Below are positions 336-61,740 of a stretch of 64,000 nucleotides of DNA, piece after piece (within the stretch, counting starts at the first letter, position 1; every line of letters begins with the position of its first letter). The DNA lies in NCBI GenBank assembly GCA_039621445.1, contig CP154954.1, positions 44,867,847 through 44,931,846 on the forward strand, written 5' to 3'. A program made the translations under genes and the position numbers. This DNA comes from Euglena gracilis. Taxonomy: Eukaryota. A model generated the notes under the pieces. That model searched no databases and was not told where the DNA came from. It worked only from the letters and a program-made list of their open reading frames with translations.

Positions 336-373
336 ACGGGGGACGGCGTGTTCCAGAATGCCATGACACAGTC
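336..373 (-). CDS. Gene A exon DCVMAFWNTPSPV (second metal-binding Asp)
   Basis: Homologous to gene B exon 44222-44320; completes the IGD motif. Confidence 0.85.
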
Positions 374-3300
374 CCCGGCAGGGAGGCGGGTTTTGCCCAG
401 GAAAGGAGCGACCCTCGGAGTGCAAGGCCACGACTTAAAGTATTGGATGCAACCGGGGGGGGGTTTCACAAAAAAAAAACAACCCCCCCAAAAAACGCAA
501 GGAGAGGACGGCCGGGGGGCGGTGGTAGCTGCGTTGCTGGGCGGGGTCCAGGCAGTGGGCAAGCACCTATAGTCAAGCCCAAAAATTTCCCCATTTTAGG
601 CCATTTTAGGCCATTTTAGGCCATTTTAGGCCATTTTAGGCCATTTAAGGCCATTTTAGGCCATTTTAAGGTATAGGTGGGGGTTCTGAAAATCATAATT
701 TTGCGTCATTTTTGTCCCGAAAAAAGTATCATAACGTGTGCAAACCTTCTCTTGTTCAGTAATAACAAATGTACATCCAAAAAAGCATGCAAAATTCAAA
801 ACAATGGGAAGCTCAGCAAGTCTATATTCATATTCATAGAGGAATTCTGAACAATAAGAATTTACGGTAGATAAAATTTTCAGAGAAAAAAAAAACGTTG
901 GACAAAAAATAAGTTTTTTTTAATTTGTGCTACCAAAAAGGCTCCCGTTTTTTTTTGTGAATTCTACACCATTTTGCGGAATTTCGCAATAAGAAGTCAT
1001 TTTTTCTGAAAGATAATGCTGCTGCCTAATGAAATTCAATTTGATTTTGGCATTGTTTCAGTCATGTATATCATTCATTTTATTATTATGATAAATATTA
1101 AAGAATAATTATTAAGATCCATAATACAAACAAAAAATTATTTCCAAAAAAATACAATGAATTTTTATTTGTATTACAGATCTTAATAATTATTCTTTAA
1201 ATACTTATCATAATAATAAAATGAATGATATACATGCCTAAAACAATGCCAAAGTCAAATTGAATTTCACCAGGCAAAAAGTGAAATATATAAACCTAAT
1301 CCTGTACCTATTGACGGATAACATATATCATATGCTATCATATTATATATCCCAATATTATTCCAATTTTATTGATAATATGATTGCAGTAATAATTATT
1401 GTACAATTACACATTATATCAATAAAACTTATTTTTACTTAGTACATATATTTATTAATTTCAACTTATTTCTCTTTTATTACTAAAATTGTATTGTATG
1501 AAAACATGTGTTATTTGTATTACTAAAACTGCATTAAATATAATGTTAATGTTATATTTTTAATTCTACAATTAAAAATTGATGACTATAAAATCTTTAT
1601 AAATATGGAAAATATATCAACAAAATTAATAATAATAAAATACCCACACGAAATATCCACATAAAATACATAGAATATCCATAATAATTTTATGTCTATT
1701 CATAAAAATTGAAACATTAAATTTACTTACAAAAGTTATATTTATATGATGCTAGAATTTTATATTTCAATTGAGATTTTTCCAACATCTTTCATCTTTG
1801 TTTTGACTTTTTCCCCATGCTTCCGTTTCATTATTTGCGAAACAAACATCGGTGCAAACCAACAAGATAGGAGTAAGAAAAAATAATATGTCCAAACCTT
1901 CAAAATTCAGCCACCAAAAAAAGGTTGGGGCTGTGAATTTGGGGACTGATACGAGTGTTATTAGGATAAAACCATGGGCCTTGTGGGGCTGTGCTCCTCC
2001 ACCAAATCCACTGTTTGCCGTCCGCATTAACAAAGGACATTGAAAGGCATTGCCTGAATGGCTTCAGTAGTTCACAAAAAAATTGTTGTGCAACAGAATT
2101 TTTCCCATTTTAGGCCATTTTAGGCCATTTTAGGCCATTTTAGGCCATTTTAGGCCATTTTAGGGACCCCCACCTATAGGGGGTCAAAAAGTCATTTTAG
2201 GCCATTTTAGGCCCTTTTAGGCCATTTTAGGCCATTTTAGGCCATTTTAGCTATAGGTGCTTGGCAGTGGGGGGGGGGGTCCAGAGCCGGAACTTGTATG
2301 GGTGGTTGCGGAGTTGTCCACCCCCACCCACCCACCCCCACCCTTAGATTTTAGGCAAAAATTTTCCTTCACAGGAAGGGGGGGGGTCGGATACCCTCAA
2401 ACCCCCATTTTGCATTGCTTTTGACCATTTCTCCTTCAGAAATCTGGGGTTTGGACGAATTTCTTTCAGGCGCACCTCAAAGAAATACATCCATCCCATC
2501 ATTCTTTTGTCATTTTCCAGAAAATACCGGAAATTTTCGGCTCAACACTTACCGAAATTTCCTGGCGCGGGGCGAGACCCTGACAAGACCCCCCCCCCCC
2601 GGGTCCACTGAGTTCAAAAGGATATTGCCCCCCCCCCCATAGCGGTGGCTCATGACTCAGCGTCATCAGCAAACTCTGTGCATCCTTTTCCAAATGGTGT
2701 GTTGCCCCAACACACTCACCCTGGCCGCCGATGTACTTGTCGATTACCCCGCGGCGCCGCACGATGATGGTGGACAGCTCCTCGAAGAACGCGCCGATGC
2801 TCTCCACCAGCTGGGCCGCGTCGGTGGACTCCGTCAGGGTGGTGAAGTTCTCGATGTCGAGAAAGAACACCGTGGCGCGGGTGGGGACCATCGACAGCGC
2901 GACGGGGGTGCCGTGCTTCAGGCACGGCTGCAGCACCTCCACCGGCAGGAACCGCGTCGGAGCGACAGGCGGCGACCGCCAGACAGGAGGGGGGCCGCAG
3001 GAGGAGGCTCGAGATTCCTGGAGCCATCTCATGGCAAACACGTGGAGGCTCGCGAGCCTCCTCGAGCTGTCCGATGACAAGCTCAAGGAGGCTGGCGAGC
3101 CGGCTCAGGGAGGCTCGCATTGAGGCAATTCCCTGCTTTAATGTATGCCCTTTCCCTCTGCCACGGTTCAAGCCCTTGTGGTTTGGATGTGTATTATGAC
3201 AAATACCCTTTTTTGTTTTTGCCCTTTCCCTCTGTAACTGTTCTGCGGGCTTTTGAAAGCCACAAAGAAAACAACATCCTTTCTCACTCTTTCTGCACCG

Positions 3301-6300
3301 AGTACCCATTTCTGTTTCTTCTTTTTCCCCGTAAGTACATTGCACTTTTCTGAATGTGCGGGGGTATTGCTTAAAGTTATTACCTGGGTGAATAAATTCT
3401 GTTTGTGGAAGCGGTTTCCTACTACAAAAAAAACAGCATTTCTTGATGTCTCCATCTCCCAAGCTTGGAGTTTTCTACAAACTTGCAATTGACGGTAATG
3501 TGCTCAGAACACTGTTATTTGGCAAATCGGTCTAGCCTGGCTACGGTGTCCAGCATGATGCGCATCTTAGCGAAGGACTCCATCATCAGGCCCAGCTCCG
3601 GCCAGGCTCCCTTTTTGGGAACTGGAAACCTTGGAAACTTCATTTCAGTGGACATCCCGCCTGGGAGCTGCCAGGCGTGGAAGGTAGGTAGGTGCAGGTG
3701 GGCGTGCACCCCCCTGCACGCCCTCAACTCCATTTTTAATTGTGTTTGACCAGCTCCCTGGAATCTCCAGCTGGGCCCTAGCAGACCCAGACCCAGAGGC
3801 TCAGTCCTGGATATGCATTCACTTAGCGACTCCTTCAGGGGGCACTTTTTCCCGCCCAAACCCATCCACCCACAGGTGGGGGGGGGTCCCCCCCACTTGG
3901 GTGGTCGAGGCGGGGGGAGGGGTGGTCGATGGCCCACCCACCACCCGTTGGGTGTCCAAGACTCCAGCCTTGTTCAACCCCACCCACCCACACACCCGAA
4001 ACCCACCCCAAAAATGGTTGAAACCCCACAGAAAACTTTGGCCTTTGGCCACACTGACCCGCACCCCACCCCCTGGGGGGGTGAAGTGCCCAACCCACTG
4101 ACCCCCCCCCTTCGGGGCAGTGGTGGTGTTAAAATGAATCCTGGACCTCCCTGGAAAGGGGTTCCGAATCAATCAAAAAGAAATCTGGCCCCCGCACACA
4201 AGTGCCCCGGGGAACGGCGGTGCCCACCACGTCCAGCTCCACGCAGCGGTGCATGTCCCAGCCAAAGGGGGTGGCGGTTGTCAGGTGCCCCAGAAGAACA
4301 ACCGTGTAATACAGTGAAGGAGAAGGCACGGCACCACAAAACACATCCACCGTCACCCCAACTCTGATAAAAAGAAGAAAACAAAACGCCATACTGGAAA
4401 TGTCGAAATGAAACGTACCAAGTGTGGGAAAAGCATGCCAATAATCTCGAGCTGCCAAATGAACCTCTGAATGAAGCTGTTTGGCTTGCGGGAAGGACCC
4501 CTCCAAGCTTCTGGAGGGTCTACGCCTGGACCATACCAATATGCCAAGCAGGGGTTTTTTAAGACCGGGGGGGAGGGGGGGGTCCCCCCCACCACCCACC
4601 CCCTGGGGGGCCTCCCGGGGGGGGGGGTCCCGGGGGACCCACAAAAAATGGCCGAAAAATCGCGAAAAGTGCTAAAAATAGCATTTTTCGGCGCCTGCGG
4701 CGCCGAAAAGTATATCCCACCCCCCTCCGGGGGGACCCCCCCGGGGGGGGGGAGGGGGCTCGGCCGGACCCACCCACCCTACCCCCCCCCGGGGGTCCAC
4801 GACTAAAAAATCCCCTGATGCCAAGAAACAGCCCTTTGCTGAAGAATAATTTCAGCAAAAAGCGGCATGGAAAAAACAGAATGGGTGGTTGGAAATGCAC
4901 ATTTTATCTCACCATTGAAATTTGCCGTGTCGAACATATTCCCATTTGCTTGAGTTTGAAATCCAAAAAAAATATTTTCAGGAAATGTAAATAACGATGA
5001 ATCTCCATGGTTCAGATTTAGTACTTTTTTGAAGTATCCTTTTGTACGACTCATTTCAGTATGGTGCGGGGGGGGGGGTCTGTCGAATTAAGATTTTGGA
5101 ACCAACTTAGGAGCAACCAATACAACAACTTTGAAGTTTCAAGGCTCAAACTGGAAATAAACTTCAGACCAGGATCCATTTTGTGACCGTTATTGAAATT
5201 GTGTGGGGATTTTTGGGGGTCTCCACCAAACTGTGGAAACACTTGGGAGGGATTTTGTTCCTCAAATTCTGTCACACCAACTTTATACCATGCTGATCCC
5301 CCCAGCAGCATGGTATGGTTTGCAGGCTGTTTTTTACCAACCCCGGGGGGGAGGGGGGGTCCGGAGTGCCTGTGAGTGCCTGCCCAGTGGCTACCCCCCC
5401 CCGGGGGGGGGGGGTCGGATTTCGGCCTGTGCCCGGGCACATTCCTTTGAAAATAGGCCATTTTTGGCTCCCCGGCGCCTTCGGCGCCGGGGTTGTGCTA
5501 GGGCACTTTTGGCCGTGTGCCCCCCCGGGGGGGGGGGGGTCGGATTTGGAGTGCCTTGGGGTGCCTGCCCAGGCAGGCACCCCCCCCCCCGGGGTGGGGT
5601 CGGCACCCGACTAAAATACAGCCTGATGGTTTGCCGACACACTGCAGACTGAGCCTGCCAAAGCCTTTGGCCGCCCCCTTGCCAGGCAACCTTCCTCAGC
5701 GGGGAGGCGATCATCTTGTTGGTGAAGAGCACCGCGACGAGGGCCACGGCGGCCAGGCTGGTGACGCTGATGATGACCAGCAGGGCCACTGACCACCGGA
5801 TCGGCCGGTCGACGGGCCCGGTGGCCGTCTTGAGGCATTGGGGTTAGGGGGGGGGGTCGGGACTGCGGTGGGAAATAGGACCCGCCCACCCATGTTGGTT
5901 GCTCACCTGGGTGGTGTCAGGATCAGCTTGATGCCTCCTCCTTTTCCTCACTTCAAGCATTATGAAAAAGGTTGCAGTAGAGTGTGCATTGATCTCCTGT
6001 GTCTGAAACACACCAGTTGCCATTGCATTGCTGGGGTGGATTTGGGCCAGTGACACAGCCCCTTACACCCCCAAAAATGCCAGGTCTCCAACATATTACT
6101 GTTGACATGGAGGTGCGCTAGCCCACCTTCGCAAAAAAAAATGCACAAAAACACGTTACACAAGTGCAAAATCTGAGAGAAAAGGCGCAAAAAAAAATGA
6201 AAAATCATCATGAAAATGAAAAAATTACACCCAAAAACGTGCGAAAAAATCCAAATTTGAAAAACAATATGCAAATGTGAGGAGAATGCCATTTACAATA

Positions 6301-8567
6301 ACAAAACCAGTTTAAATATAAATTATAAAAAAAGGAGAGCAATACCAAAAATGCGCTGGAAAAAAATGAAAAGCACAAAAATGGGCAGAAATGCGGAGAA
6401 ATTTTCATTTGCACACACCCCACATCAGCACTTGTATAAATCAGTGGGGGAGGTGCCAGCGATTTATCCCATCGCCATTCGCACCAGTTCAGTTCGTGTG
6501 GTCCATCATGGGGGCTCCGTTAGGCACAGCCCTCGACCACACAGGTGGGGAGGGCCACTTTCTTGGAGAGAGAAAGAGGCGGCCCCCGGTCTGCACTGTA
6601 CGGCGTGGCGAGCACGAGGCGGTACGGCGTGGCGTCCCCCCGGGATGGGGGCGGGGCTTGGTTACATCGCCCCGGGGCTGCAGAAAAGAAATGCGAGTGA
6701 ACCAACAGGAACTGTCGAGAACGCAGCTGGAAAAAAAACTGGAGGGGGCGGCATGGCACCATGTCCAGGCCAAAACAAAACCAGTTGCCATCTGGCAGAT
6801 GTTAAAAATTAAAATGCGACAACAAATGAAGACATTGCAACAAAAACTTTGAAAAGGCAAAGAGGATGGAATTGTGTTGTGCATCCCCTCGTACGTTGTG
6901 CAACTCCTGTTGCCAACTCCTGTTGCCGATGCCCTCGCACGCAACTGTTCGGGGGCCCTAATATAACAAAATCCCTGTGCCTGTTTGTGTGCAACTCCTG
7001 TGTGTGTGCAACTCTCTTTTGTTGCCGATACCCTTTCATACGAAACTTTTCGGACGGCCCAAAAATAACAAAACCTCTTGTGATACATATGCCCTGTGTG
7101 TCATCACCCTTTTGTTGCCAATGCTCTGTTGTATGCAACTGTTCGGATGCCCTAAAATTACAAAACTGTTGCATATGCCCTGTGTAGAAAGGAATTTTAT
7201 CGTATTTTTTTTTGATAAATTATTATTCAGTTTTATGATAATAATTATTTTGGATACATCTCTAATAAAATCGAGAAGTAACTTCCTTGCTAATTAAATT
7301 AAAATGCATCAGATATGTTTCTCGTGTGAGACAATTCTCTGGGATCTTATGCAAAACTTAAAATATATTTTAAAAATGGTAAAAAAGAAAACATTTCAAA
7401 TATATGTACACATTACTTTATTATTTCTTTAAAAATTGATATACCAGCCTTTACAAAAAAAAAACATAAAAAAATCCGGGAAATTTAAAAAAAACATGCA
7501 AAGAATGTGCAAAAAGTATGAGCAAAATTGAAAAATTTCCGAAAGAAATCATCTCCAGCTCGCAGCCAACAGCAGAAAAAAAATTTGCGAGCTTCGAGAA
7601 AGTGCTCAATTTTGTCAAAAGATTGCCATGCCAAAAGAGCAAAGCTGGCAGTACAGGCCAGGAACCAACAGACACTTCACCGAGCCTGTCGTGAAACAGC
7701 ACCTACAGCTGTGAGATCAATCCCCGGGAGTGACGACCCGCTGCCAGCTGATGAGGTGGCAGCCGCCCCGGTCGGAGTCCAGGCTGCCCGACGTCGCGGC
7801 CGGGGAGGGGGGCGGCAGCGCGCGGAACGTGTCCGCCACCACGGCGCAGTCGGAGCTAGCCGCGTCCAGCAGCTCGTCGCCTCGGTGGGTGGCACCAGAG
7901 GCGGCTCCATAGGTGGACGGGGTTCAGAGCAAAGTTTTTTCAGGATCTGGGGGGTCTGGCACACACCTGCCAACACAGCACAAGGCTGGGGGGGGTCCCA
8001 TCCTCAGTCTAACGCAAAATCTGGCGGGGGCGGACCCACCCACCCAGCCAGTCACCTACCCCCCCCCCAGTCACCAACCTGGAAAAAAAAATGTCTCTGG
8101 TTCACCATACGTGGGGTCTGGAAATCGGAGGGGGGAGGGAGTTTGTTGACAACGGAGATGGTTTAAACTTCCACAAACATTGACAATGCTTGAACTCCAC
8201 CGGAATGGCATGATTTGACTACACCAATTGAAATAATGGATGCCCAAGGCTGGGGCACGGGTTGTTAAATCCCCCCCATGAGTGTCAGGTGTGGCCCGGT
8301 GGAGGGCCCCTGCCCGGAGCCACACGTGGCGGCGATCAGCGTGCCGCGGTCGTCCACGAGGTACGCCGTGGAGGCCCCCGCCGCCCCGCCGCTGAACCGC
8401 TGCACCGCGGAGTGGAGCAGCGCCGCCCAGTCAGCCCCCCAGGGCCTCGCCCCGCAACCAAACTCTGTCGACCCAGACCCTCTCCCCAGTGCTGCCGAGC
8501 GAAAGATCATCGAGGGCACAGCATTTCTGTGTGTGTTCCACGCCCGCAATTGAATGCGTGCGTGCGC

Positions 8568-8612
<45 letters not shown>

Positions 8613-8627
8613 TGTGTGTGTGTGTGT

Positions 8628-8708
<81 letters not shown>

Positions 8709-11700
8709 CGCGCTGCTAAATGTCCGAACCCAGACACAAATTCCCTCTCCCTTAGTGGACCGTTTGGGGCGACGACAAAACTGCGCTTGGAATGCACTCT
8801 GGGAACTCTTCTGATCCATCAGTCCGAAGTGTCATGGGTCAGAAGAGCATTCACAAGCTGTGTTGTTAATGGCCTCCAGAGCCCGGGGCCAGGCACGTCT
8901 TCCCTTTGAAGGCTGAGAAATGGAACCGGGCCATCAAACCCCCCCCCCTCTCCGGCCCTCTCTCCGCGCAGCCTGCTGGAGGTGTGCTCAGCGGGGCCCT
9001 GCCCGGCGTCCTGCACCCACACGAAGTGGAGCACGCGGGTGCCGTTCACCCGCGTCATGCGGTACTGCCCCACCTCCGTGAACGTCGGCCGCCATGGCCC
9101 CTCCGCATCTCCAGAAGTCGGATGGGGGCGTAAACGCCCCCCCCCCCCCCATACAACCCCCCCCCTCGGGCCGACCAACCAAACTGGGACTTGGAACCCC
9201 CCCCCCCCCCCGGGGAAGAAAATCAAAAGCCGCCGGGACGATTTCTTCGGCCGCAAACCACCCAATAACTGATTTTTTGGCAATTTTTTTTTGAGACCGA
9301 CCGTCATCAAAAATGCCATTTTTGACCAAATTCGCCGAAGAATGCCAATTTGGGTTGTTTCAGGGTCTTTTCGGGGGGTTGCATTTTCACGAATAATTCC
9401 TTGAAGGGGGGTCGCTGAGCTCTTACCTCTTTAGAGTAAGAGCGAAGCTTACCCCCCGGCGACCGTGGGTCCGACCCCCCCCCCCCCTGCCCCCCCCCCC
9501 CCTGGGTAGGTCCGGACACCCGAGGATTATCGATGTGATTGGATTTCCTGGCCCCCAAAGTGAGGAACCACAAATTTTTTCTTGGTGTCCACATGTGAAC
9601 CACAAAAAAAATTTTGGTGTCCACAGGTGAACCACAAAATTTTTTTGGTGTCCACAAAATTTTGTTGCCCACAAAACTTGATTGAGGATCGAAATAAAAA
9701 TGAGTTTTACAACTAAAAGCTATTACGTCTTTTGTGAACCACACTAAATGAATGTCTGGCGCATACCGATCGATACCCGCCCCCCCCCCCTGGGCAATTG
9801 TCGCGTGACAAATTGGGTAGCACGGAGGGGGGTGACAATTTCCCGGGGTGACAATTTGGCCGGCACAGAGGGGGGTGACAATTGCCCGGGGGCGTCAATT
9901 GCCCACCCATGTAAGCCACATTTGAACCAAATGATCAAGAACACCATCTGAAACACAAACGAACATATGGTCGTGATATTGTGCAGAGCGTTTGGTATGC
10001 GAAAGTTCTCAGCGCGTTGTAACGAAATAAAAGATCAATCGAGTCATGCGGCGAAAAGAAAGTTCACAATGCAATACTACAAACGGGGGGGGTGACAAAT
10101 TGGGCAGCACGGAAGGGGGTGACAATTTCCTGGGGTGACAAATTGGCCGGCACAGCCAGGGGTGACATTTGCCCGGGGGCGTCAATTGCCCGGGGGCGTC
10201 AATTGCCCGGGGGCGTCAATTGCCCGGGGGGGCGCGGGTAGGGCGTCCCAAAGTTGTGGAATGGGGTCCTCTTTGCTTTTCCTCAACTCCGTAGCGTTTT
10301 CGAGATATTTTGAATTTTCGATTCCTTGACCCCAAAATGACCCTGCAATTTCTCCGGGAACAAAACGTAGACCACGTTTTTGCTCGGGGCGGCATATCTC
10401 CGGACTGGCGGGGAGTTGCAGGTAACCTAAGGGCTCTGGAGAAACTAGAGATCGTCCCCTAACCTATACGGATTGAGCTTGAGACACCAAAATGCAGCCA
10501 CATTGTGGGGGGTGGGGAGACCCTCCTCCCACCTCCAGTTTTTGGTTGCCGAAACTTCTCGCTGTTGAGTTCAGAATTTCTCATTGAGCCTCAAGAGGGT
10601 CCTAAAATACACACCCGGCGCGAAGAGCAGGTGCGGATGCGGGTGCGGGGGTGTTTTTTTTTCCCCTGCAGAGGAGGAGCGGTCCACTTTGGTAACAGAC
10701 GCCCAAAAGACGTCATTTTCTGCCGAAATCGGCCACGTCGACGCTCCAAAAGTGAGAGCTCTGCCTCGCCTTGAGGTCGGCGATCCTTTGCCTGATTGTT
10801 GCGAAGGGGGACGGGCGGAGAGGCGTAATTTTGCCCGCAGCGGGAGTGCGTAAAACGCAGCAGTTACCGCCTGGGAGGCGCAAAATACCATGTGGGGGAC
10901 TGGTTTTTTGAATAGTGTTGAGCTCTTAATTGGACTTGCACGTAATGGACGGCCGAAAAGACTAGTTGCAAATTTCGCATAAATTATGGTTTACAAATTG
11001 CACACCTGCAATTTAGAGTTACTTACAATAATTTTTGAAAGGTTAAGAGGTCAGCGACCACCCCCATACACCCAATACCCGTTTTTCTTCGATTTTCCGA
11101 CTTCTTTGACCCGGAAATGATCCCCAAATCCATGGGTTCCAGGCCAAAAACGGGGGGCCGGGGTCGAAAAAAATCGAAGGAATTTTTTTCCTTGCCCGAA
11201 ACGATGTTTTTTTGGCTCCCAGACCCAGAAAAACTGCATTTGAGCCGAAAATGAGCGTTTGCCAACTTTTTTAAAACCAAAAAGGGCTGAAAACGGCTGA
11301 GTCAAAACACCCCAAAATGTACAAAATGGCCAAAATCAGTCGAAAAAACAGTCCTAACTCGGGCTTGGCGGGGAGTTGCGGGGAAATCAAAATATCCTTA
11401 GATAAGGCATTTTAAGGGCTTCAATTTAGGTCTCCAGACATTTCCTTTGACTCCCAACCATTTTTGAGAAATTTTGATTTGGAAAAATCGATTTTTTTGA
11501 GCAAAAAAGGATGGCCCAAAAAAACACCCAAAGTGGCCGTTTTGGGCCACAAAGGTGCGTTGGAAGACGGGCCAGGCGCTTCGGCGGCCAAAACGGCGAA
11601 CGGGGGTCGATAGAGGGCCTCCAGGGGTGCATTTTGTCAGTGAGACACTTCTGGAGATAATGTGCGTTTCCTCGAGATATTTTCGAAAAATCGATTTTTT

Positions 11701-18794: not shown

Positions 18795-18796
18795 CA

Positions 18797-18850
<54 letters not shown>

Positions 18851-19100
18851 GATGGGATGTATGTATGCATACACACATGTGAAAATATGTGCACATATGT
18901 AAATACATACATGCATGATGCACATAATTACGCACACCTGCAACCGACCCTCCGACCTACTGACCTACAGACATGTCTCCATACATACATGCATGCATAC
19001 ATACATACATACATACATACATACATACATACATACATACATACATACATACATACATGCATGCATACATGCATGCATACATACATACATACATACATAC
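18795..19100. repeat. (CA)n(GA)n and (ACAT)n microsatellites; duplicate at ~31926-32228
   Basis: Direct reading. Confidence 0.95.
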
Positions 19101-21817: not shown

Positions 21818-21884
<67 letters not shown>

Positions 21885-31929: not shown

Positions 31930-31979
<50 letters not shown>

Positions 31980-33495: not shown

Positions 33496-33509
33496 GATAC
33501 AGATTTAAT

Positions 33510-38960: not shown

Positions 38961-39129
38961 CAGGCTGTATTTTAGTCGGGTGCCAATCCAACCGGGGGGG
39001 GGGGTGCCTGTCTGGGCAGGCACTCCAAGGCACTCCAAATCCGACCCCCCCCGGGGGGGGGGGGGGCACTTGGCAAAAAGTGCCTAGCAGGCACTCCGGC
39101 GCCAAAGGGATTGGTAGAAAAACAGCCTG
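38961..39129. mobile_element. Shorter copy of the 5323-5625 MITE family, opposite orientation
   Basis: CAGGCTGTATTTTAG...TAGAAAAACAGCCTG; decayed TSD CTGCAGAC/CTACGGAC (6/8). Confidence 0.8.
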
Positions 39130-50514: not shown

Positions 50515-51284
50515 GTTGAAAGGGGGTGCATATATTTGATGCACGGAGCCAAATGACGCACCGGAGGTCAGCCCCTGGCTGAAACAGAAAAGCTGGCGGG
50601 ATCGGTGAGGCCGGACCGGCATAAGCAACGACCTGAGAGGCAAAACTTTGAGATAATTTCTTGTCATCAAAATGGTAACTTCCCCTTGTCATCAAATGAA
50701 CCTTCGCTTTTGCTGAAAAGTCGAAATTTCAAGAAATATCTGAAAAAAATTGCTTTCCAGGAACATGATTTTTTTAAAGAAATAATTAAAAAAGCACTAT
50801 ATAAAAGCACTATATAAAAGCACTATATAAAAGCACTGGAGAAGGGGTTGTGGTTGGACAAATGTCAGTGTTTAGACAAGGGAAGAAGGGAGGTGACGTG
50901 AGCTTAAAGATCCTGGACAGTGTCACCCCCCCCCCGACTCCTTTGAGTGAGGATCAGCCACTTGTAGCCCGACGGCGTGACCGGACGACAATATAAAGCA
51001 AGAACTGTGGCACCACAGCACCTGGATGATGTTAACCACGCATCAATTCGGGCAAACATCTTTCACCATCAAGAAAGGCTGGTTTCCTTCAAAACGTGGT
51101 TGCTGAGGTGAAAAACCAATCAAGCTGGAAGGAACACCTATGCAGCCACTGGTGGTCACGAACTGTACCAAAAACCTGGAGGCACATTGAACCAACCCTC
51201 ACCCAACATCAACACAGACCGATATTGGAGGAAGGGAAGAGGGGGTTTTTGGCTTTTTTGGCCGAGACCCGGTTGTCCCTCAGC

Positions 51285-54200
51285 TCGGGCGGTGGTCTCA
51301 CACCGCAGGCACACGCCGCGGTTCACCCAAACCTTGTTGATGGGGCGGGCGCACACCGTGCACGGCGTGGAGCCGGAGAGGTGGCGCTGCGGCAGACATT
51401 GGTCGGGGGCACAGCCCTTTCCGATTTTGTGGTGCTAATTTTTTTGTGGTGTCAGGGTTGATCAATGTTCGGCCCAGCTTGGAGCGCTAGGCCGAACATC
51501 AGCCAACACGCCATTCTTCACAACAGCTGTTTTGCCACTCGATCAAAAAAGGATGGAAGGGGGTGGGGCAGAGAAGCGCCGTGGGCACCGTGATCGCTGA
51601 AGGCGGCCACCATGTTGTCCCACAGCGGCGCCACCGCCTGCCGCACCTCTGCCAATAGCTGCGGCAGCTGGAAGTCCTGCGGCAGGAAATCCGCTGAGTG
51701 GTGACGGCCGAGGCCCGTCCGTCCGCTAACCCCAGTGTCGCAGCACCCTGAACGTTGGTGTTGACAGGCATGCACCCATTGCTGGACTATGTGGTCCAGT
51801 CGCACTCCCGTTGCGGGTGTTTGATGCAAGCTCGAGATACGTACGTGCCTGGCGGACCCCGGGGCTGGCGGGGCCGGGGTCACCGATGCGAAACGCAGGG
51901 CGGTGCGGGCCCTGCCCCGGGGAGCGCAGCGGCCGCTGGATGACGGCCAGCCAGCGGAGCACTTCGCGGTTCACGTCGGCGATGCCCTCCAGGGTGTGGA
52001 GGCAGCCACCCCGCTCGCAGTGCTTAGCCAGTGCTTCGCCATCAAACACCAGACAACCCATCCAGTTTGGTGTATGGGTTACTTGCACTGGGAGGGTCAC
52101 CCTCTTAGGCGGCCGAATTCGCACTTAAGCTTTTTTCCTTTTGATTTGCGCAATTGCGCAAATGCACGATTTTTTTGTAAACCCTGGGACCCTGTACCCT
52201 GACAGCCGGAACACGATTTATGAGCTATGACACCCCTCCACTGGAGGGGATTGACTCCCAGTGGTCTGGTGTGCATGCTGCTTGCCAGGTGCCGTTAATA
52301 GGGCGGATGGTGAGACTTGTGCTGTTGTTCATCAAACGGGAGAGAGGCACACACCCCTTGTGACGACACTTGGAACTGGTGCTGACGTGCTGCCTGAACT
52401 GGCTGTGACACTGCCGCCACCGGTAAGAACACACTGAGTCTCATGACATCACACCACCACAGACACACAGACTACGTGAGGCAGCCGTCACCCAATTGAT
52501 GTGTGTTTGTGCGCGCAATTGCGCAAATAAAAACAATTGTGTTTGATGCGCGCATTTCGCAAATAAAACATACACCGATGATGATAAAATGACGTGTTGG
52601 TGGGCGCCAGTGCGCGCACCAACACATTTGGTGGTGTGCGCATTTGCGCAAATGCGCACACCACCAAATGTGTTTGGTGCGCGCATTTATGCCCACAAAC
52701 ACGTACGTTTACCTTCCATGTTAAAAGACACCAATGAGGACCATGACTTAGAAGGTTTAAAAACGTGGTGGACGTGTTGGTGCGCGCAATTGCGCAAATA
52801 AACATAATTTTGTTGATGCGCGCATTTGCGCAAATGCGCGCATCAACATGTTAATAAACCGCTTCCAAATAATGTGTTTGTAGGGCCCTTAGAGCACATA
52901 AACAAAGTTTGTTGATTTGCGCAAATGCGCGCATCAAAACACATCAGTTGTGGGATGCCATCTCCTGCTCTGTGACGGCTGGCGAACACAATTCCTCACG
53001 CCAGCCATTGATTTGCTCCAAGGTTACGTGGCGATGAAATTGGTGGTGAGAGGTGGTGTGGAGTGTTCACTGGAACACGGCATGTGACTGGCCAAAATTT
53101 GCCTGCCTTACGTGTGTACATGTGCACTGCTGTTCCCCGGTCCGAACGGTCTGTTGTTTTGGTGTCATGTGTTTGGCAGTTAAACGTAATGAGTTGATGA
53201 CGTGCAAACGACCTGTGACTGTTGGACACTTTTTGTGCAACAGGACTGCGTTACAGGAAGACAAAATTTGGCACCTGAAACACCCGGGATGTGTCCGGCC
53301 GGAGTCCGTTTTACGGTTTTCTTTGCCATTTTTCCCTTGAAAAATGTAAAAAACACCAGTTTTTGTGCATAATTTGGGGGGAGTGGGTCCCACCGCTTTG
53401 ATGCGCCCAATCCAGGGGTAAAGGTTCAACACTTCCTTGCATCCAAAGTAACGGGTGTTTGAGGGCCACCTCTCTCCAGCTGTTGGTTGCCATGCACTGG
53501 CACCACGTCGTCCCCCCAGTCTTACACCCCGGTTGCGGGGTATAACGGGGCCGCTGTGGTGGGTGTCGTTGCACCGGGGAGGTCGATGCCGGCCTGCTGG
53601 GTGCTGAAGCATCAGCAGCTGATGGGGCTGCAGCAGCGGAGCCGAAGCCGCAGGCCAGCTGCAGGGCACTTGGGACCCAAAAATTGGTGCCCGTGGAGGT
53701 GAACGGTTACTGGGTGGCTTTGCACCCACCTTCAAAAGATGCTATGTCTCCATCTTTTGCCGGACCTGTCAATGGTCCAAAAACGGCACAATAACACCAT
53801 ATCCCGGAGGGGACGGTGTAGTCATTTGGGTTGAACCCACTCAGAAGCCACTAAGGGTGGCTGTAGGGGGGCCGAATGAAGTCACTTATTACTCCTCCAC
53901 TGGTGGTTTATTTGCGCATTTGCGCGCATCACGTTGTTTTGTGGGCGCAAATGCGCAAATAAAACAGATGTAAACTGAACAATTTACATCTGTTTTATTT
54001 GCGCATTTGCGCCCACAAACAACGTGATGCGCGCAAATGCGCAAATAAACCACATCTGCTGTCGGCGTTTGACGGCCATGTTTCCGTCACACCGTTCTTC
54101 TTTGCGTTTATGGGCGCAAATGCGCGCATCAAACACAAAACACGTTTGATACGCGCATTTGCGCAAATGCGCACATAAACATGTTTTGTGTTTGATGCGC

Positions 54201-57200
54201 GCATTTGCGCCCCTCAGCTTGCGCCGTCGACAAACAGTGAGATAAACCCACCAACTGGACGGGCCTTGGACTGCCCACTCACAGCTCCTTTGTCACACCG
54301 TTTATCAACAGCGTCAATTCAGGGTGTCAAAGCCCAATCTCCAGAAGGACATAAGTGTGCGCATTTGCGCAAATGCGCAAATCAACATAAACATGTTGGT
54401 GCGCGCATTTGCGCGCATCAAACGCAATTTTGTCCTTCCAGTGTTGGGCTTCTTCCGCTGGGTTCATTGCCACACCACTGGTTGTGTGCATCCCGGGTAT
54501 AAGCCGGGTGTGAGACACCCATCCCCTTCATTCCCTTCATTCCCTGCGGACCCCGTTTCTTCCCCCTCTACGCATTCCTTCTCAAACACCCCGCAGTCAC
54601 CTTCCTTCCCCAGCGTCCCTCTCGCCGGCTCGGTCACACCACACCCACACCCCCTGGCACCCTCCTCCCCGCGCTTTAACAAACAGCCCAAAAACACCAC
54701 ACCAAGGCGTCGCAAGCAACGCAGTCCGGCAAACACCCGGGACACACACCGCCGGCAGCTCGGACACACCTGGGGACACAGCCGAAAGAAGCAGCAAGGG
54801 CAGTAAAGGTCCCGTTCCTAAGGTGCTTTTTTGCGTTTTTTTCAGTTTCGGCCGGCAGGGTCCCGGGGGTTTGGGCCCACAAAGTCCTTCCCGACACCCC
54901 CCAAAATCACTGTTTTTCGCCAAAGTCCCGGGGTTCTCACAGCCAAAATCAGAATTTTGCTCATTTTTTGCACTCTTTTGTTCACGTGTTTTCAAACCCC
55001 CCGGACCTTCACAGCCAAAACAAAGCACAATCAAAAAAATCGTAAATTTGCGCAAATGCGCAAATCAAAAGAAAAAAGCTTAAGTGCGAAATCGGCCGCC
55101 TAAGACCCTCCCCTTGGACAAAAAAGAAACTGGGGGGGCTTCAAAAAAAAGGCAAAAGTTTTCACACCCACATGTTTCTTGAAAAATCGGCCAAAACAAA
55201 AAAATTGTCTTCCCTGGCAGTAAGTGCCAAGGCTTTTTCCTCGTTCCGGGGGTCCCAAATCCTACCTCGGGTCTGAAGGGGGGGGGGGGTTGCACCTTTT
55301 CCCCCAAAGCAAAACCAACGTTCACTTGACACCCTGTCATATTATGTACAACCACTGAGGTCAACGGCAAAAGGAGCCAAACCCCCAACCTGCAATCAGA
55401 GCCGGGGGGGGGGGGGGGCAAGTGGGTTCCAAACAAAAGAAATACATAAAATATGCGGTCAAGGACTGGGGCAGACTTCTTTTTACCAACCCGGGTTGGC
55501 TTTGGACCCCAGTGCCTGCCGACCCAGGCAAATTTCCCTTAAAAATGGCCATTTTCGGGCCGCCAGCGCCTTGGGTCTGGGGGATATAGCACTACCCCCC
55601 CCAACCCCCCAGGGTCGAAAGTTCACAGACAAAAGGGCCAGAAGCGAAAAACAGCGCCAGGCCAGAAGAAGGGATAAGGGGCACCAAATAAACAGCCACA
55701 GTGCAGGGGGTCGAAAGTGCCCCACCCCCCTGCCTGCCCACAGCACTCCCCCCCCCCTTAGTTGCACTAAGGCTTCTTGTCTGTTTATGGCCGGCGCTAA
55801 CTTCGCTTCTGGCCCAGCTTGCTGTGTGGTGAGTGGCCAGGTACCCCTTACCAGGCTTCTTTTTAAGACCCCCGGGGGGGAGGGGGGGGAATGCAGCGCC
55901 AGGCCTTAAACCAGACAGAAGCCAAAGTGCATCTAAGGGGGGAGGGGGGGTCCCCCCCCCCCACCCAGGGTGGCGCAGGCCCCCCCCCGGGGGGGGGGGA
56001 CCCCCCCCAAAATCGGGCCCGTTAAAGGCAATTTTCAAAAAATTTTGGCGCTTCGCGCCGAAAAGGTATACCCAGCGCCTCCGGCGCGGGACCCCCCCCC
56101 CCCCCCCGCGGGTCCGGCCAGGACCCCCCCCCCACCCCCCCCCCAGCCCCCCCCGGGGGGGGGGGGGGGGTCAGGTGACCTAAAAAGAAGCCTGCCCCTT
56201 ACACCAGTGCTCTTTTGTTGCTCCGCCTGGCCGGGTGAGCAACTCTGGTGTAATTCCAGCGCTGTAGGGACATACGCTTACCTTGTGTGGTTGGTGTGGT
56301 TCCCGTGGGTGGGTCTCCCCCCGGGGGGGGGGGGGCACTTCCTTTAAAAGAGGTCTCGACCGGGGGGAGTGCCCCACCTCTCAAACTGCAGTCAATGGCC
56401 GTGGGGTGGTCGTTCGTCACATGAGTGGTCATAGGGCGAGAGGGGGATACAAACCAAAAGGCCAAAGGCCAATGGTTGCGGCGACGGGTCTGCGGAGACG
56501 CTGGGCGGAGGTGCATGGCGTGGTGGATGCGGTCGCTCAGCACGCCCGGGGCCGGCTGGAACGCCCGCAGCGCAGTGAGGGCCGCCGGCAGCCGGGCCCC
56601 AACCCACTCCAGGCTGGCCTCCAGGCGGGCCACCAGGTCCACGATGCGGAGCACCTTTGGCGGCAGCGCCGGCCCGGGGAACGCGCCGCAAGGGACGCCT
56701 TGCTGACCCCGACCCCCGACTCACTAAGTGGGTCTTTGAGCTAAGCCCTCCCCCCCCCTGTGGGGGTTGGGCCAAATGGTTGCCCCACCAGAGGCGTGGT
56801 TTTCCTCTGTTTTTTTTTGGACCCTAGAATTGGGCCCCCCAAAAGTGCCCCCCAGAGCCCCCCCCCCCCCCAGGGGGTGGGTGGACAAGTCTGGACCCCT
56901 CAGGGGATTAACGAAAAAAGGGGGGAAACCTGTTACTATTATTAACTGTTATTTCCTCCCAGGAGGAAAGATCGAGCACTTTGCTGGGAGCGAATGAAAG
57001 TTTCCTCCGCCCTGAAAAGGCACCAATCAACACAGGGCAGGGATCCAGGCTCCAAATGAGCCACTGAACCCCCTCCCCGTAAAAAAAGACACGCAGCCAA
57101 ATGGCCTTCATCGCTACACACACTCTTTGCTTTCAAGCCATTGTGAAACACCATCTGCAAACAGGCGTCCTTCGGCAGACGACTGCTTTTGTTTTGTTCC

Positions 57201-60200
57201 ACAGGGAAGGGGAGGAAACCCTTGCGGTGAAATGCATCGCAGATCCCGGAGATAATCCGATGGGGTACCCGGCGGGGATCCTCACAGCACGGCGCTGGGT
57301 GAGACCCCCCGGGCGATGAAGACCTTTTCGGTGTAGGCAAGGATGTGGGCTGCCGGAAGGCGGAAGCCTGAGAAAACCCACCCCGAAAGCTTCCCTGCCT
57401 TGGCGGGACTTGGGCCGCGAAGGGGGCGAGGATGGCGGCGGTGGTGTTGGGGGGCGGGCACCCCGTCCGGCATCGTGAGGAGGAGGAGGAGGAGGAGGAG
57501 GAGGAGGAGGAGGAGGAGGAGGAGGAGGAAGCTCCGTCGAGCTGCCACACAGACTTATTGGAGAAATGGGGCACCAAACAATGGGTCCAGCCAAAGAACA
57601 CCAGCCTGGTGGTTGGGATCATTGTCATCACCATCATCCTCCTCCTCTTCCTCCTCTGACAGACTAAAATGGTGCCGAGGTTGGCAAAGAAGACAAAATC
57701 AAAATCAAATCCTGCAGATGACCCAGAATCTTAAATCTTCTTTGAGTACTCTTCTTTGACATCAACTTCTGAAAACACATCAATGATACCACAAATTTAC
57801 AGAGGTGCAGGCAGAAAATTTTTTTTGATGGGAAATCTGCTGGGAACGATGCATTGTGCTATGCTGTGGCCACTTTGATACATGAGTGTGGAGCGTCCGC
57901 GGAGGTGTGATCCTGTGAGGGAATGATGCTTGGTGTCACACCATTGTTGGCCACGCCCAGTGAAGGGATGATCAATCGCCCGCCCCATGAACTGCGCGGT
58001 AAAGACGCGCGCATGCGGACATGCATTCACACACAGACAGACAAACCCAGAGAGTATGCACACTGTATCTGGAAACCGTCAAGCAGTTGCGTTGGACCCA
58101 AAAAAGGGGTATCCTTCTGATCAAGAACGGCGTGATTGGAAGGGAGGTCGTGGCGACCGCACCACTCTCGCCCGTGTGGGACCGAATCCACGCTTCCGCC
58201 CGCTCCAGGGCTCGTGCGACGCCCAGGCTGTGGGGCAAAGCCACGGTCTGGCTCAACGAAGACAGCAAAGACCGATCAAATGTGGGGCAAGGGGGGGGGC
58301 ACCGGTCGACGCCAGCCCTTGGGCAGGGCACGCAAGGGCTCGGGGACCGCTGGGTCCGCAGCTGCTGGGGGTGTGCGAGGAGAGCCAGGGATGCGACTTA
58401 CTGGGGGGGGGGTTGGCCCTTTCCATTAGAACACAAATCTGTCCGACCGCGTTCTGTGAAAAATCTGCAGGAATAATGAATGGAATAATGAATTGAAATT
58501 GGTCAACAACGGGAAAATAACGATTTCTGGAGTCCCTGGAAAAAGCGTCCATCCGCCCAAAACACCAATAATGTCGACCGTTAGAGGCCCCAACCAGGCC
58601 GTTACCAGCTACTCAGATCTACAGGCCATGTAAAGGTGTAAAGGCCAAAGAGAAAGGGTTTAACGGTCTTTAAAGGTCCTTAGTTAATTTAAAAAAAAAT
58701 CCCGTCCCCACCTGGCATTGGGGGGGGGGGGTCGGATGCTCCCCCCCCCCAGAATGGACGTGGTTGAACTCCCCCACCACTCAAAGGGGTTCGGGGATTC
58801 CATACAGCCCTGAAATGAGAGTGGTGCAGCTAGCCCACGAAGGACGACCTCTGAGCACATCCCTGGCCAGAGACGGGGTCACTTGCTTCGCTGTTTGATG
58901 CCGGGGGCACGTACACTGCGTGGCTCTCGAATTCAGCTTCACCGTCTGAAGAAGGAAAAAAAGGTGACTGGTGGTTAAAGACAAATCCGCAGCATACGTG
59001 CTTGTAAGGCCGGGGAGTGCGGCGCTGCGCTCCACTCGGCCCGGGACCCACGAGCCCCCAGCATCCCCTTCGGGGTGCCTCGGGACGGAGCAGATCCACT
59101 TCGTGAACGTCCGAGCGTCCGTCACGGCCAGCAGCATCCCCTTCAGGCGGGAGAGGAGGCACGAGAGGTGGACGTACCGCTGGTGCTCGGGGGCCTCCGC
59201 CGGGGTGCGCAGCAGGTCCAGGGCGTTGCCTAAGGATCCTCCCTCCCTGTGGGGGTCCAGCTCAGAGGCTGAAAATTTTGGGATGGCTGGATAAAGGCGT
59301 CCCGGGCGGGAGCTAGGCCCGGTCTGGGGTCAAACCGCATACTAAAAAAATCAAAATCACAAAAATGTCAAAAAAAACTGCCAACTGTGCAAAAAAAAAA
59401 ATCGATGTTTTGACCCCAAAAATGTCCTGGCTTTTTTTTTTTGATTATTGCACCCATTGCATCCCCGAAAGGGAAAAATCGGTCACTGTCCAGCCGCCCC
59501 AAGAGCGGCTGGAAATTAATAAATCTCGATGATGGGGGGGTCCGGAGCTGGAAAACGGCTGTTGGCGGGAAAAAAGGCTGCTGGCTGGCTGGATCCCCCC
59601 CGGCGGTGTGGGGTCAAGTTTTCTCAAGCAACGCCCTGAGCAGGTCACAGTAGTGAAAGACGCACAGCCGTTTCAGCTGGCGTTCGACATTTGAGCAGAG
59701 GGCTTTGGTACCAGGCGGAGGCCACCCCCCCCAAAAAATTAAACACGACACTGAAATGGTGGGGGTAGGAAACTTTGCACCGTCAATGAGCACCTTGAAG
59801 TATTTCAAGAGTTTGCCCAGCCCCGTCCAATGTGGAAACCTGACCTCACAATGTATCCTGCATGTTTCAGGCAGCAGCATTTTCCAGTGAGCAGCATCTT
59901 CCCAGCTGTGGACCACCACGTTTCTCCCCCTTGGATTTTGAATTGTAACTGAGAGGCATGAATTTACCTCTCTGGGCTGCAGCACCCCCGGCTCTGGCCA
60001 AACAATGACGAAGCACCCATGGTCATCCAGATTTCCAGACCCAGTCACGCTCAGTCACGCCAAGTCACGTTCGGTCACTCACAACCAGACCAGTCCTAAC
60101 ACAGAAAAAAAAGGGTCAAAATTGGTAAAAGTGGAGGGGTGTCATTTATGACGGGGATGGGCAATGCCTCCCTGGCGGCAAACAACCACCCCAGGCACCA

Positions 60201-61740
60201 TCAAATTCAGCCTCCAGTTTGAACCTGGCTCTCCAGTTTGAACCAGGAATGTTTCACATCAAAAATGCACATGTCAAATGAGATATACGTAATGGAGTGG
60301 CCCAAAGGTCGGTGGCAGAAAGACACTGATGGAAACACAAAGCGACCTCTGGAAGGGCAGCCTCCTGAGCTGAGCGCAGGCTGCCCAGAAATGTTTCGAC
60401 GGCAGCAACCTAAAGGTTGGGGGTCTGGGGTGGGGGTAGGTGGGGGCGGATTGGACTTGAGACATTCAAATCAGAGGATGGGTAGGGGGCAGGTTTGGAG
60501 CGTTGGCAGGACAGTGTGGGTTTCTGGGGGACCCCCCCTTTACAGATGTCCATTTTTGGACCCCTTCCAATCCCCCCGAGATAGATGAAAACTTTGACAC
60601 AACTAAGTGGCCATTTTAGGCCCCCCAAAAAGGCCTCAAAATTCTTCCGGCACCTTCCGTGCCAGTTCTTGGTCATTTTGGGGGGGTTTGCAATACAGTT
60701 GGGACACTGGGACCAGGCTTCTTTTTAAGTCAGGAGACCCCCCCCTTGGGGGAGGGGGGTGGGGGTGGGGGTGTGGGGGGGTGGGGTCCGTGGCCGGGCC
60801 CCCCCCCCGGGGGGGGGGGGCCCCGCGCCGGAGGCGCTGGGTATACCTTTTCGGCGCGGAGCGCCGAAAATTTTTGAAAATTGCCTTTAACGGGCCCGAT
60901 TTTGGGGGGGGGGGTCCCCGCCCCCCCCCCCCACCCCCCCCCCCCGGGGGGGGTCCCGCGCCACCCTGGGTGGGTGGGGGGGGGACCCCCCCCCCGGGGG
61001 GTCTTAAAAAGAAGCCTGACTGGGACGCTCCCCCCCATCCCAGCACAGTAAAGCAAATAGTGCTATTTTTAGAACTTTTTGGAACCTCGGGACCCCTCCT
61101 CTCCCTCCCAATGTTCCTTGGGTTCACGGCCAGGTCACGGGGGGGGGGGAGGGATCGGGAACCAATCCAGAACTAAATAAATAGGTATTCAAATTTTAAG
61201 CATCTCAAAATATTAAAGAGATTTAGCAGCAAAACAAGAATCACCAACCCAAATTAAAAAGTTCAAGCATTAAACTTGGGAAATCCACCAAAAATTTTCA
61301 TCAAATTCCAAATCACAAAATTGCAGATCACCAGAGAAAAAGGTCAGAGAAAAAGGTTGCCAGGGCTGCTAGTTCAGGTTTCGGGGGACTCCAGTTTGGG
61401 GACCACCCGAATGCGGAGGCCGTGTCTGCAGAAAGCATTACCTCTAGAACGTTCTACCTACAGGAGGTGAAGCCTGGTAAAGATGAGAAACATCTTCTTG
61501 AGCTGCACGAGCTCCTGCCGGACCATGAACGCCTCCGGTGGGGCCGCCTCCTTCTGGCGGCAGCCCCAAAAAGAAAGCCAAAGGGCATCGCACTGCCTCA
61601 GGGGTGCGACAGTTTCAACACAGAAGGGGAGGGGGCGAAGGAGAAGGCGGAGCACGGCCAGCTGCCGGCAACGCTCCAGGATGCAGCCCACCACAGCGGC
61701 GGGCAGTGAACCCTCGAGGTCACGCTGGGCCGCTTCGAGG
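51285..61740 (-). CDS. Gene C: multi-exon gene of unknown function, largely helical, with a Cys-rich segment (CTVC...CLRC) near its 3' end
   Basis: GC-rich open segments at ~61480-61740, 61105-61125, 60370-60415, 59775-59920, 59642-59720, 59040-59213, 58830-58945, 58150-58250, 56490-56700, 51880-52030, 51590-51690 and 51285-51390. The in-frame join YCDL|LRTP was verified by hand; no family recognised. Confidence 0.55.
52103..55105. mobile_element. 3.0-kb TIR element with 3-bp TSD, related termini
   Basis: TIR TCTTAGGCGGCCGAWTTCGCACTTAAGCTTTTTTC extending ~70 bp imperfectly; TSD CCC; many TTTGCGCAAATGCGC motifs. Confidence 0.88.
55852..56194. mobile_element. hAT-like MITE (CAGGCTTCTTTTTA family)
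   Basis: 14-bp TIR; 8-bp TSD CCCCTTAC. Confidence 0.92.
57477..57528. repeat. (GAG)n trinucleotide tract
   Basis: Direct reading. Confidence 0.95.
59219..59638. mobile_element. hAT-like MITE inserted in coding sequence of gene C, forming intron 59214-59641
   Basis: Perfect 11-bp TIR CAGGGCGTTGC/GCAACGCCCTG; perfect 8-bp TSD AGCAGGTC at 59211-59218 and 59639-59646. Confidence 0.9.
60714..61018. mobile_element. hAT-like MITE, same family as 55852-56194, opposite orientation
   Basis: 16-bp TIR CAGGCTTCTTTTTAAG; 8-bp TSD ACTGGGAC. Confidence 0.92.

Follow-up and report, generated by a model that had tools for sequence, protein, structure and literature searches.

About 70% of euglenid introns are nonconventional, and the code for their removal was defined experimentally as N3-CDG...CH'G-N5-6|R, in which the 5' spacer is strictly 3 nucleotides (nt) and the 3' spacer preferably 5 nt (Nomura et al. 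2025, PMC12501133). A MITE-like origin of these introns, that is, from miniature inverted-repeat transposable elements, was already published (Milanowski et al. 2014, PMC3935182), and a review describes junction repeats that resemble target site duplications (TSDs), with CAG and CTG acting as terminal inverted repeats (TIRs) (PMC11282704). The idea that splicing mitigates insertions is found together with the 3/5 spacers in the text of PMC12501133, where the spacers are called random and the repeat-flanked 'slidable' introns (84.4%) are left out of the motif analysis; that text contains neither 'duplication' nor 'hAT', and its one '8 bp' denotes a motif position. The window analysed here is a stretch of 64,000 nt from Euglena gracilis (assembly GCA_039621445.1, contig CP154954.1, positions 44,867,847 to 44,931,846 of the forward strand), in which nonconventional introns occur together with short TIR elements that carry 8-bp TSDs. 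Insertions of such elements are quite probably born as spliceable, scarless nonconventional introns, the 3-nt and 5-nt spacers adding up to the length of one duplication.

Introns that coincide with an element and one duplication

The window is GC-rich and contains two paralogous class III adenylate/guanylate cyclase genes, both on the minus strand, and a third gene on the same strand.

Gene A, about 336-4300, minus strand, cyclase paralog
Gene B, about 40300-50513, minus strand, cyclase paralog
Gene C, about 58780-61980, minus strand, no Pfam family match

Three introns of these genes supply young examples, one being an intact MITE-intron and two being probable paralog-specific gains.

Intron C3, 59214-59641, 428 nt, minus strand, an intact MITE (59219-59638) in a coding exon
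Its element, 59219-59638, 420 bp, perfect 11-bp TIR CAGGGCGTTGC, TSD at 59211-59218 and 59639-59646, AGCAGGTC on the plus strand
Intron B3, 44839-48767, 3929 nt, minus strand, element 44844-48764, TSD copies 44836-44843 GCTGGGCC and 48765-48772 ACTGGGCC
Intron A1, 3598-4190, minus strand, element 3603-4187, TSD copies GCTCCGGC and GCCCCCGC, support: paralogy only

The original prediction held that splicing at the 3/5 positions removes an element together with one TSD length and thereby restores the mRNA as it was before the insertion. This is supported by intron 59214-59641, by empty sites in the cyclase paralogs, and by the spacer sums and RNA joints. Intron 59214-59641 lies within a coding exon, its perfect TIR being flanked by a TSD alike at 8/8 positions (GACCTGCT in sense). 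Reads and contigs were compared over positions 42001-62000, using contigs of X1 and X3 (from different studies, their RNA status being guessed), the raw RNA-seq set X21, and the DNA-like set X20, which may be the sample behind the window assembly. Contig pieces of X1 and X3 both stop at 59210, which is as far left as a junction with 8 ambiguous nt can be placed and implies the removal of 428 = 420 + 8 nt; the X1 contig ending there continues through 59690, a 17-nt micro-exon and 61480. The frame stays open over this removal (...VFHYCDL|LRTPAEAP...). In the minimum-free-energy RNA fold, the intron termini pair in a 17-bp helix starting from CAG/CUG, with a whole-molecule z-score of only -1.33. 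Over 59343-60009, k-mers of X20 reach a depth of 4934, about 100-fold above the neighbouring bins (about 36), a depth that is not to be taken as a copy number.

The two cyclase genes provide empty sites for the other two introns. At the first site, gene A has a single GCTGGGCC (2810-2817; ...CCACCA GCTGGGCC GCGTCGG...), whereas gene B has GCTGGGCC[CAG..CTG]ACTGGGCC at intron 44839-48767. At the second, gene B has a single GCTCCCGC (50442-50449), against GCTCCGGC[CAG..CTG]GCCCCCGC at intron 3598-4190 of gene A. The duplicated 8-mers are alike at 7/8 positions in 44839-48767 and at 6/8 in 3598-4190, and 3/5 joining rebuilds the 8-mer of the paralog exactly at both sites; hence CAG and CTG are the exact limits of the inserted unit, and 8 bp were duplicated. 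All three substitutions (3/3) in these TSD copies fall within the spliced-out N3 or N5, for which chance alone gives about 1/8 at n = 3, and the position of the drift is only consistent with the model. An intron that is itself an element with TIR and TSD, and whose removal restores the pre-insertion sequence, was found at 59214-59641, and the empty sites extend this to 44839-48767 and 3598-4190. MITE ends carry the end signals of nonconventional introns. The termini of intron 3598-4190 agree with the TIR of MITE3 and MITE4 (listed below) at 12/16 positions by hand count, and local alignments of the introns against the MITEs gave weak, homopolymer-inflated scores only (30 for A1 vs MITE4), from which no family membership was assigned.

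Spread of these introns through RNA would be another route to flanking repeats: excised circular introns would reinsert by reverse splicing and reverse transcription, the repeats being by-products. Nonconventional introns are in fact excised as circular RNAs with full-length ends, according to the text of PMC11282704. However, an excised intron would bring along the N3 and N5 of its old site, whereas the N3 and N5 of this window agree with the sequence of their own insertion sites (8/8, 7/8, 6/8 and the empty sites), which argues against reverse splicing of an excised circle. Furthermore, elements of the same kind and TSD length sit inside an intron (MITE4) and in a repeat whose copies elsewhere lack the element (MITE3), which indicates insertion at the DNA level. 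The RNA route is thus held to be very improbable.

Insertion of a DNA element into an exon is preferred, and the mechanism could be as follows. A superfamily of short non-autonomous DNA transposons, with TIRs beginning CAGG(C/G) and ending (G/C)CCTG, would insert with an 8-bp TSD. Both TIRs would pair in the pre-mRNA, with the helix starting at CAG/CUG and the TSD copies left as single-stranded arms, and a splicing activity would cut 3 nt before CAG and 5 nt after CUG, ahead of a purine. With 3 + 5 = 8, the element and exactly one TSD length would be removed, and TSD positions 1-5 of the 5' copy would be joined to positions 6-8 of the 3' copy, rebuilding the uninterrupted target. An exon insertion would therefore be a functional intron from birth. 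Afterwards the intronic parts of the TSD and the inner TIR would drift and nested insertions would enlarge the intron, until the CAG/CTG core and the 3/5 spacing are the final remnant. If a purine has to follow the 3' cut, A or G is required at TSD position 6 (transcript sense), and the three young introns have G, A and A there. The window shows directly the 8-bp TSDs, the agreement of MITE ends with intron ends, the loss of an element plus 8 nt from RNA, the empty sites of the paralogs and the 3/5 split. Transposition by a cut-and-paste transposase and the superfamily membership are what we infer, as is the origin by insertion of older introns without TSD traces.

Spacers and transcript joints across the introns

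The intron table holds 14 introns at 12 distinct positions, with RNA-derived support for 10, support by frame for 1 and support by paralogy for 3. Besides the three given above, it comprises the following.

Intron A2, 2958-3542, minus strand, paralog of B1 with the same N8
Intron A3, 374-2726, 2353 nt, minus strand, support: paralogy with B4 only
Intron B1, 49753-50389, minus strand, N3-CAG..CTG-N8|A, loose ends
Intron B2, 48839-49678, minus strand, N3-CAG..CTG-N4|A, joint 48838>49679 in 13 raw reads, 2 contigs and 0 in X20
Intron B4, 44321-44752, 432 nt, minus strand, N3-CAG..CTG-N5, joint 44319>44752 in 18 raw reads, 1 contig and 0 in X20
Intron B5, 42835-44202, minus strand, N3-CAT..ATG-N5, joint 42834>44203 in 17 raw reads, 2 contigs and 0 in X20
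Intron B6, 42536-42728, minus strand, N3-CAG..CTG-N5, X1 loose end at 42536 and X3 piece from 42729
Intron B7, 41261-42448, minus strand, N3-GAG..CTG-N5, first exonic base T, contig loose end
Intron B8, 40580-41224, minus strand, N3-CAG..CTG-N5, support: open frame through the cyclase domain and motif VYLKGKAMGMSVYEL only
Intron C1, 60372-61479, minus strand, N3-CAG..CTG-N5|A, contains MITE4
Intron C2, 59691-60354, minus strand, N3-CAG..CTG-N5|A, downstream in sense of the 17-nt micro-exon

The seven introns originally predicted as firm all read N3-CAG...CTG-N5 in sense (7/7), which on the plus strand, the genes being on the minus strand, appears as N5-CAG...CTG-N3. Splicing of those within 42001-62000 (44321-44752, 44839-48767, 42536-42728 and 59214-59641) is supported by RNA reads or contigs in 4/4 cases. 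Four further introns had been overlooked (42835-44202, 48839-49678, 49753-50389 and 41261-42448). Two introns had been proposed as probable: of 61126-61479, the 5' junction 61479|61480 stood and the 3' end was wrong, the RNA giving 60372-61479 and 59691-60354 around the micro-exon, while for 9107-12967, which lies outside 42001-62000 and is without support as an intron, the flanks matched 0 families of Pfam. The exonic purine expected after N5 is present in 13/14 introns and is replaced by T in 41261-42448. The observation as a whole is partly confirmed: its core holds, and its details are corrected.

None of the 10 RNA-supported introns in 42001-62000 has a GT-AG border, and raw RNA reads cross four of the joints, with 8-18 reads apiece, while 0 contigs of the DNA-like X20 do so. 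One of these is the joint 44836>48766 of intron 44839-48767 (8 raw reads, 2 contigs, 0 in X20), where 7 letters fit either side; the content of this intron is highly repeated in X20. From RNA alone, joint 44319>44752 permits a split of (3,5) or (2,6) and joint 42834>44203 permits (3,5) or (4,4), so that together 3/5 is the sole compatible split, in agreement with the published code. Exact N3-CAG..CTG-N5 is present in 9/14 introns, and variant triplets keep the same geometry in two more (CAT/ATG and GAG/CTG), the triplet of 42835-44202 being changed yet complementary; the other spacers are N3/N4 in one intron and N3/N8 in two. The spacer sum is therefore 8 in 11/14 introns and at 10 of the 12 distinct positions. 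Complementarity of the intron ends over the first 14 nt amounts to 6-12/14 across the 14 introns, with a perfect pairing run of 3-11 nt from the triplet in 13 of them.

When the flanks of the 14 introns were compared, 8, 7 and 6 of 8 positions were identical in the three young introns and 5 in each of the pair B4/A3, while the other nine were at 0-3; shifted registers average about 2.4. B4 and A3 occupy the identical position in their genes, and A3 is 2353 nt long vs 432 nt for B4 because of the nested element 560-2263. No TSD trace is left in 42536-42728, whose flanks are alike at 2/8. On this reading the TSD persists in a young subset and has disappeared from the older introns, as expected under the model, which leaves the intronic halves of a duplication free of constraint.

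Several points weigh against insertion as the general origin. The removal of 59214-59641 was read from the ends of contig pieces, its joint not being among those listed, and raw reads cover the place about once. Intron 48839-49678, the third that is specific to one paralog, found in gene B and without counterpart in gene A, has a decayed TSD and a sum of 7, and the TIRs are weak in 44839-48767 (8/14 complementary) and in 3598-4190 (9/14). Precise intron loss would equally leave a single 8-mer in the paralog; the near-intact duplications favour gain. Nine of the 14 introns stand at background flank identity, and their insertion origin is extrapolated. The introns off sum 8 number 3/14, namely 48839-49678 (7) and 49753-50389 with its paralog 2958-3542 (11), which means that the 3/5 ruler is not absolute or that other helices determine the cut. 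Furthermore, the intron families are known from this single window, and no transposase family of Pfam was found among 10 open reading frames (ORFs), including the 5 largest in intron 44839-48767, nor was an autonomous element seen.

The nine introns without TSD trace and the three with other spacer sums would also suit a coincidence, in which the 3/5 geometry arose independently of transposons, most nonconventional introns have some other origin, and a few MITEs happen to fit or exploit it. Synthetic introns with arbitrary spacers do splice, according to the text of PMC12501133, so TSD identity is unnecessary for splicing. However, all element families of this window share the CAGG...CCTG termini and the duplication length that the code needs. 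Recognisable 8-bp duplications were found at register 0 at 3/12 positions (8/8, 7/8 and 6/8), with a fourth, B4/A3, at 5/8, and loss of the TSD is expected in old introns, where the duplicated intronic halves are unconstrained. Coincidence is accordingly regarded as unlikely. In its widest form, the insertion model would make euglenid splicing an RNA-level excision calibrated to the 8-bp stagger of one transposon superfamily and measured 3 and 5 nt from the helix of the element's TIRs, by which any insertion into a transcribed exon, in either orientation and given a purine at TSD position 6, becomes an instantly scarless intron, and which accounts for most of Euglena's majority intron class; the case for and against this wide form is about evenly balanced.

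In introns 49753-50389 and 2958-3542, the distance from CTG to the exon is 8 nt in both, and positions 6 and 7 after CTG are pyrimidines; the 3' cut may be shifted downstream there by the need for a purine. The contig behind the junction of 41261-42448 differs from the window at 4/30 letters, and the expressed copy may be an allele or a paralog. The micro-exon of gene C (60355-60371, GGGCAGCCTCCTGAGCT) was seen in one X1 contig joining 59690>61480, and lengths calculated for one X3 contig suggest that some transcripts may lack it. An extra intron of gene C near 61556-61653, suggested by one X3 contig, was left out of the counts, as its lengths disagree by 1-16 nt.

The joined exons of gene B give a single open frame across 8 junctions with a complete cyclase domain and a terminal stop, and the frame of gene C is open over all three junctions. 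The cyclase genes contain the motifs ATVFFLDIENFT, YIGDCVMAFWNAP and GDVVNVASRLE, and Guanylate_cyc of Pfam matched a gene A exon at E = 0.0011, short of the family cut-off, as the only match of the 10 ORFs. Two exons of gene C matched 0 Pfam families.

Terminal inverted repeat elements and their superfamily

Besides element 59219-59638, the window contains the following TIR elements.

MITE1, 4549-4817, 269 bp, TIR CAGGGGTTTTTT / CAGGGGATTTTTT, TSD ATGCCAAG at 4541-4548 and 4818-4825
MITE2, 5323-5625, 303 bp, TIR CAGGCTGT(T/A)TTTT, TSD ATGGTTTG, 8/8
MITE3, 55852-56194, 343 bp, TIR CAGGCTTCTTTTTA, TSD CCCCTTAC, 8/8
MITE4, 60714-61018, 305 bp, TSD ACTGGGAC, 8/8, nested in intron 60372-61479
Additional MITE, absent from the original prediction, 36717-37175, 459 bp, perfect 16-bp TIR CAGGGTTGTATGGGAA
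Short member of the MITE2 family, 38961-39129, 169 bp, inverted, flanks CTGCAGAC / CTACGGAC alike at 6/8
Element 560-2263, 1704 bp, perfect 13-bp TIR CAAGCACCTATAG, exact 8-bp TSD GCAGTGGG, nested in intron 374-2726

MITE1 to MITE4 had been predicted to combine CAG...CTG ends with exact 8-bp TSDs, and all do (4/4). They had also been called intronic, which is shown for MITE4 only, inside intron 60372-61479. MITE4 belongs to the MITE3 family in opposite orientation. The additional MITE at 36717-37175 is flanked on both sides by CCCCCCCC (C8), a low-complexity repeat that is weak as a TSD. The terminal motifs of the MITE families are CAGGCTTCTTTTTAAG, CAGGCTGTxTTTT, CAGGGCGTTGC and CAGGGTTGTATGGGAA, and element 560-2263, starting with CAAG, represents a second TIR family with the identical TSD length.

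The window was scanned for CAG and CTG at a distance of 60-6000 bp whose outer sides are abutted by one 8-mer in exact copies. This gave 16 pairs, with a TIR of at least 11/12 in seven: the four MITEs, element 59219-59638, the MITE at 36717-37175, and one artefact that pairs inverted MITE3 with MITE4. A stricter scan, in which CAG..CTG ends, a TIR of at least 10/12 and an exact abutting repeat were demanded and low-complexity repeats were removed, gave 6 matches at length 8, namely the four MITEs, element 59219-59638 and one MITE3/MITE4 artefact. Other repeat lengths gave 0 matches at 5, 6, 7 and 10 and one at 9, and symmetrically displaced registers gave 0. Among 100 Markov-1 random sequences, the stricter scan had 0 matches in 99 and one match in 1. 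Elements with CAG...CTG ends and an 8-bp TSD exceed chance. With other terminal triplets, 30 matches were obtained (CAT 12, CCC 5, ATG 4, TGC 4, TCA 2, and CAA, GCA and TTT 1 each), with few exceptions from arrays of tandem or palindromic structure (18.9-19.1, 32.1-33.4 and 52.6-54.4 kb) or between MITE3 and MITE4; the sole clean element among them is the CAA element 560-2263. Pattern scans of metagenomes with the MITE termini gave 0 matches. The pair 45678-48402 (GCA..TGC) was rejected as a TIR/TSD element, being a 17-bp direct repeat. This repeat, GAATGCGCAGGTGCGCA, at 45664-45680 and 48397-48413, brackets 2.7 kb within intron 44839-48767.

MITE3 together with one TSD (351 = 343 + 8 nt) is missing from other genomic copies of its host repeat, as seen in 6 X20 contigs with 8 ambiguous letters; it is a DNA-level insertion into a multi-copy repeat that has MITE-free copies. 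The same 351-nt joint occurs in 21 RNA reads and was rejected as splicing, since it is also present in these 6 DNA-like contigs. The region 55341-56674 around MITE3 has a very high X20 k-mer depth, a raw RNA read depth of 15-20 and many loose ends into other copies, and looks like an expressed multi-copy repeat hosting MITE3.

hAT TIRs follow the pattern (C/T)A(A/G)NG, which starts such as CAGGG and CAGGC appear to resemble, as they do the ends of Ac and hobo; 8-bp TSDs also occur outside hAT. In this window, the 8-bp TSD is exact (8/8) in the four MITEs and in elements 59219-59638 and 560-2263, and the termini all start with CAG or CAA, the fifth base being G in some (CAGGG) and C in others (CAGGC). 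On these features, 'hAT-like' appears a reasonable description, and hAT membership is putative. The same mechanism could also be served by another superfamily, such as Merlin with its TSD of 8-9 bp, P, or an undescribed group, and this is a tentative yet substantial possibility. The 10 ORFs compared with Pfam contained no hAT transposase or domain. The text of PMC8101967 describes two Merlin families with 8-bp TSDs in E. gracilis, which makes them DNA transposons of the same genus with the same duplication length. Merlin elements have, however, a TSD of 8-9 bp and TIRs of at least 24 bp that end in 5'-GG, according to the same text; the TSD length fits, while in this window CA immediately adjoins the TSD and the terminal 5'-GG was not found. 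Element 560-2263, with its 8-bp TSD and CAAG start, also fits YAR, the opening of the hAT pattern.

Elsewhere in the window, a 13.2-kb tandem duplication (6464-19644 / 19645-32771) has 98.5% identity, 125 mismatches, 32 gaps and a largest indel of 14 bp; it may be genuine and recent, or may have been produced by the assembly. The tentative intron 9107-12967 is present twice owing to this duplication, and a comparison of the two copies gave no MITE-sized indel between them. Imperfect microsatellite-like arrays of CATA/CATG-type units and TG/CA runs (32800-33460; 8580-8700 and 21760-21880; 18955-19100) lead to many spurious ORFs and self-matches.

Relation to known systems

The introns described here are like the euglenid nonconventional introns in having non-GT/AG borders, CAG at +4..+6, CTG at -8..-6, paired ends and an exonic purine (texts of PMC12501133, PMC3935182 and PMC11282704). 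What differs is that those texts, without figures and supplements, give no TSD length, superfamily or 3 + 5 = 8 argument. No paper was found that ties the 3/5 spacers to an 8-bp TSD or these introns to hAT or any superfamily, subscription papers, figures and supplements being outside the scope of the search; Fig. 1B and the supplementary information of PMC12501133, which concern the distribution of sliding distances, might already show an 8-nt signal. The published code leaves the 3-nt and 5-nt spacers arbitrary, and this locus offers a reason for them, namely that their sum is the 8-bp duplication. The idea of a MITE-like origin thereby becomes quantitative and falsifiable: under it, flank identity should peak at offset 8 across the genome, the outcome should depend on the length of the TSD, and TSD position 6 should be a purine. 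The origin of introns is a long-standing question, for which euglenids are an extreme case; if the wide form of the model is true, intron birth would be experimentally reproducible with a defined element.

Among transposons, hAT MITEs are alike in their 8-bp TSD, short TIRs from CAG or CAA and non-autonomous copies of 170-460 bp; the elements here, with no transposase seen among the 10 ORFs compared with Pfam, are candidate members. In maize, Ds is spliced out at cryptic sites of the spliceosome, and scarless removal is not built into that process. The creation of an intron by a Ds element (Giroux 1994) is cited in the text of Milanowski 2014 (PMC3935182).

Also comparable with the proposed model are the introners. 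In Micromonas and Aureococcus, introners form multi-copy families in which a TIR element with its TSD makes an intron whose removal restores the coding sequence. There the spliceosome acts at GT/AG-type sites supplied by the element and its TSD, whereas here the sites lie 3 and 5 nt from an RNA helix (introner side described in part in PMC11282704 and PMC7789003). The introners of Amoebophrya are like the present introns in being non-canonical, with inverted repeats of 8-20 nt, direct repeats over the borders and a hairpin that joins the exon ends (Farhat et al. 2021, PMC7789003). Unlike the introns of this window, they have direct repeats that measure 3-5 nt and vary in position, with no fixed 3/5 ruler and no common terminal triplet (PMC7789003). 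In conclusion, set beside these systems, the relation between spacers and duplication at this locus is a sharpened, testable version of a known hypothesis and not a new kind of system.

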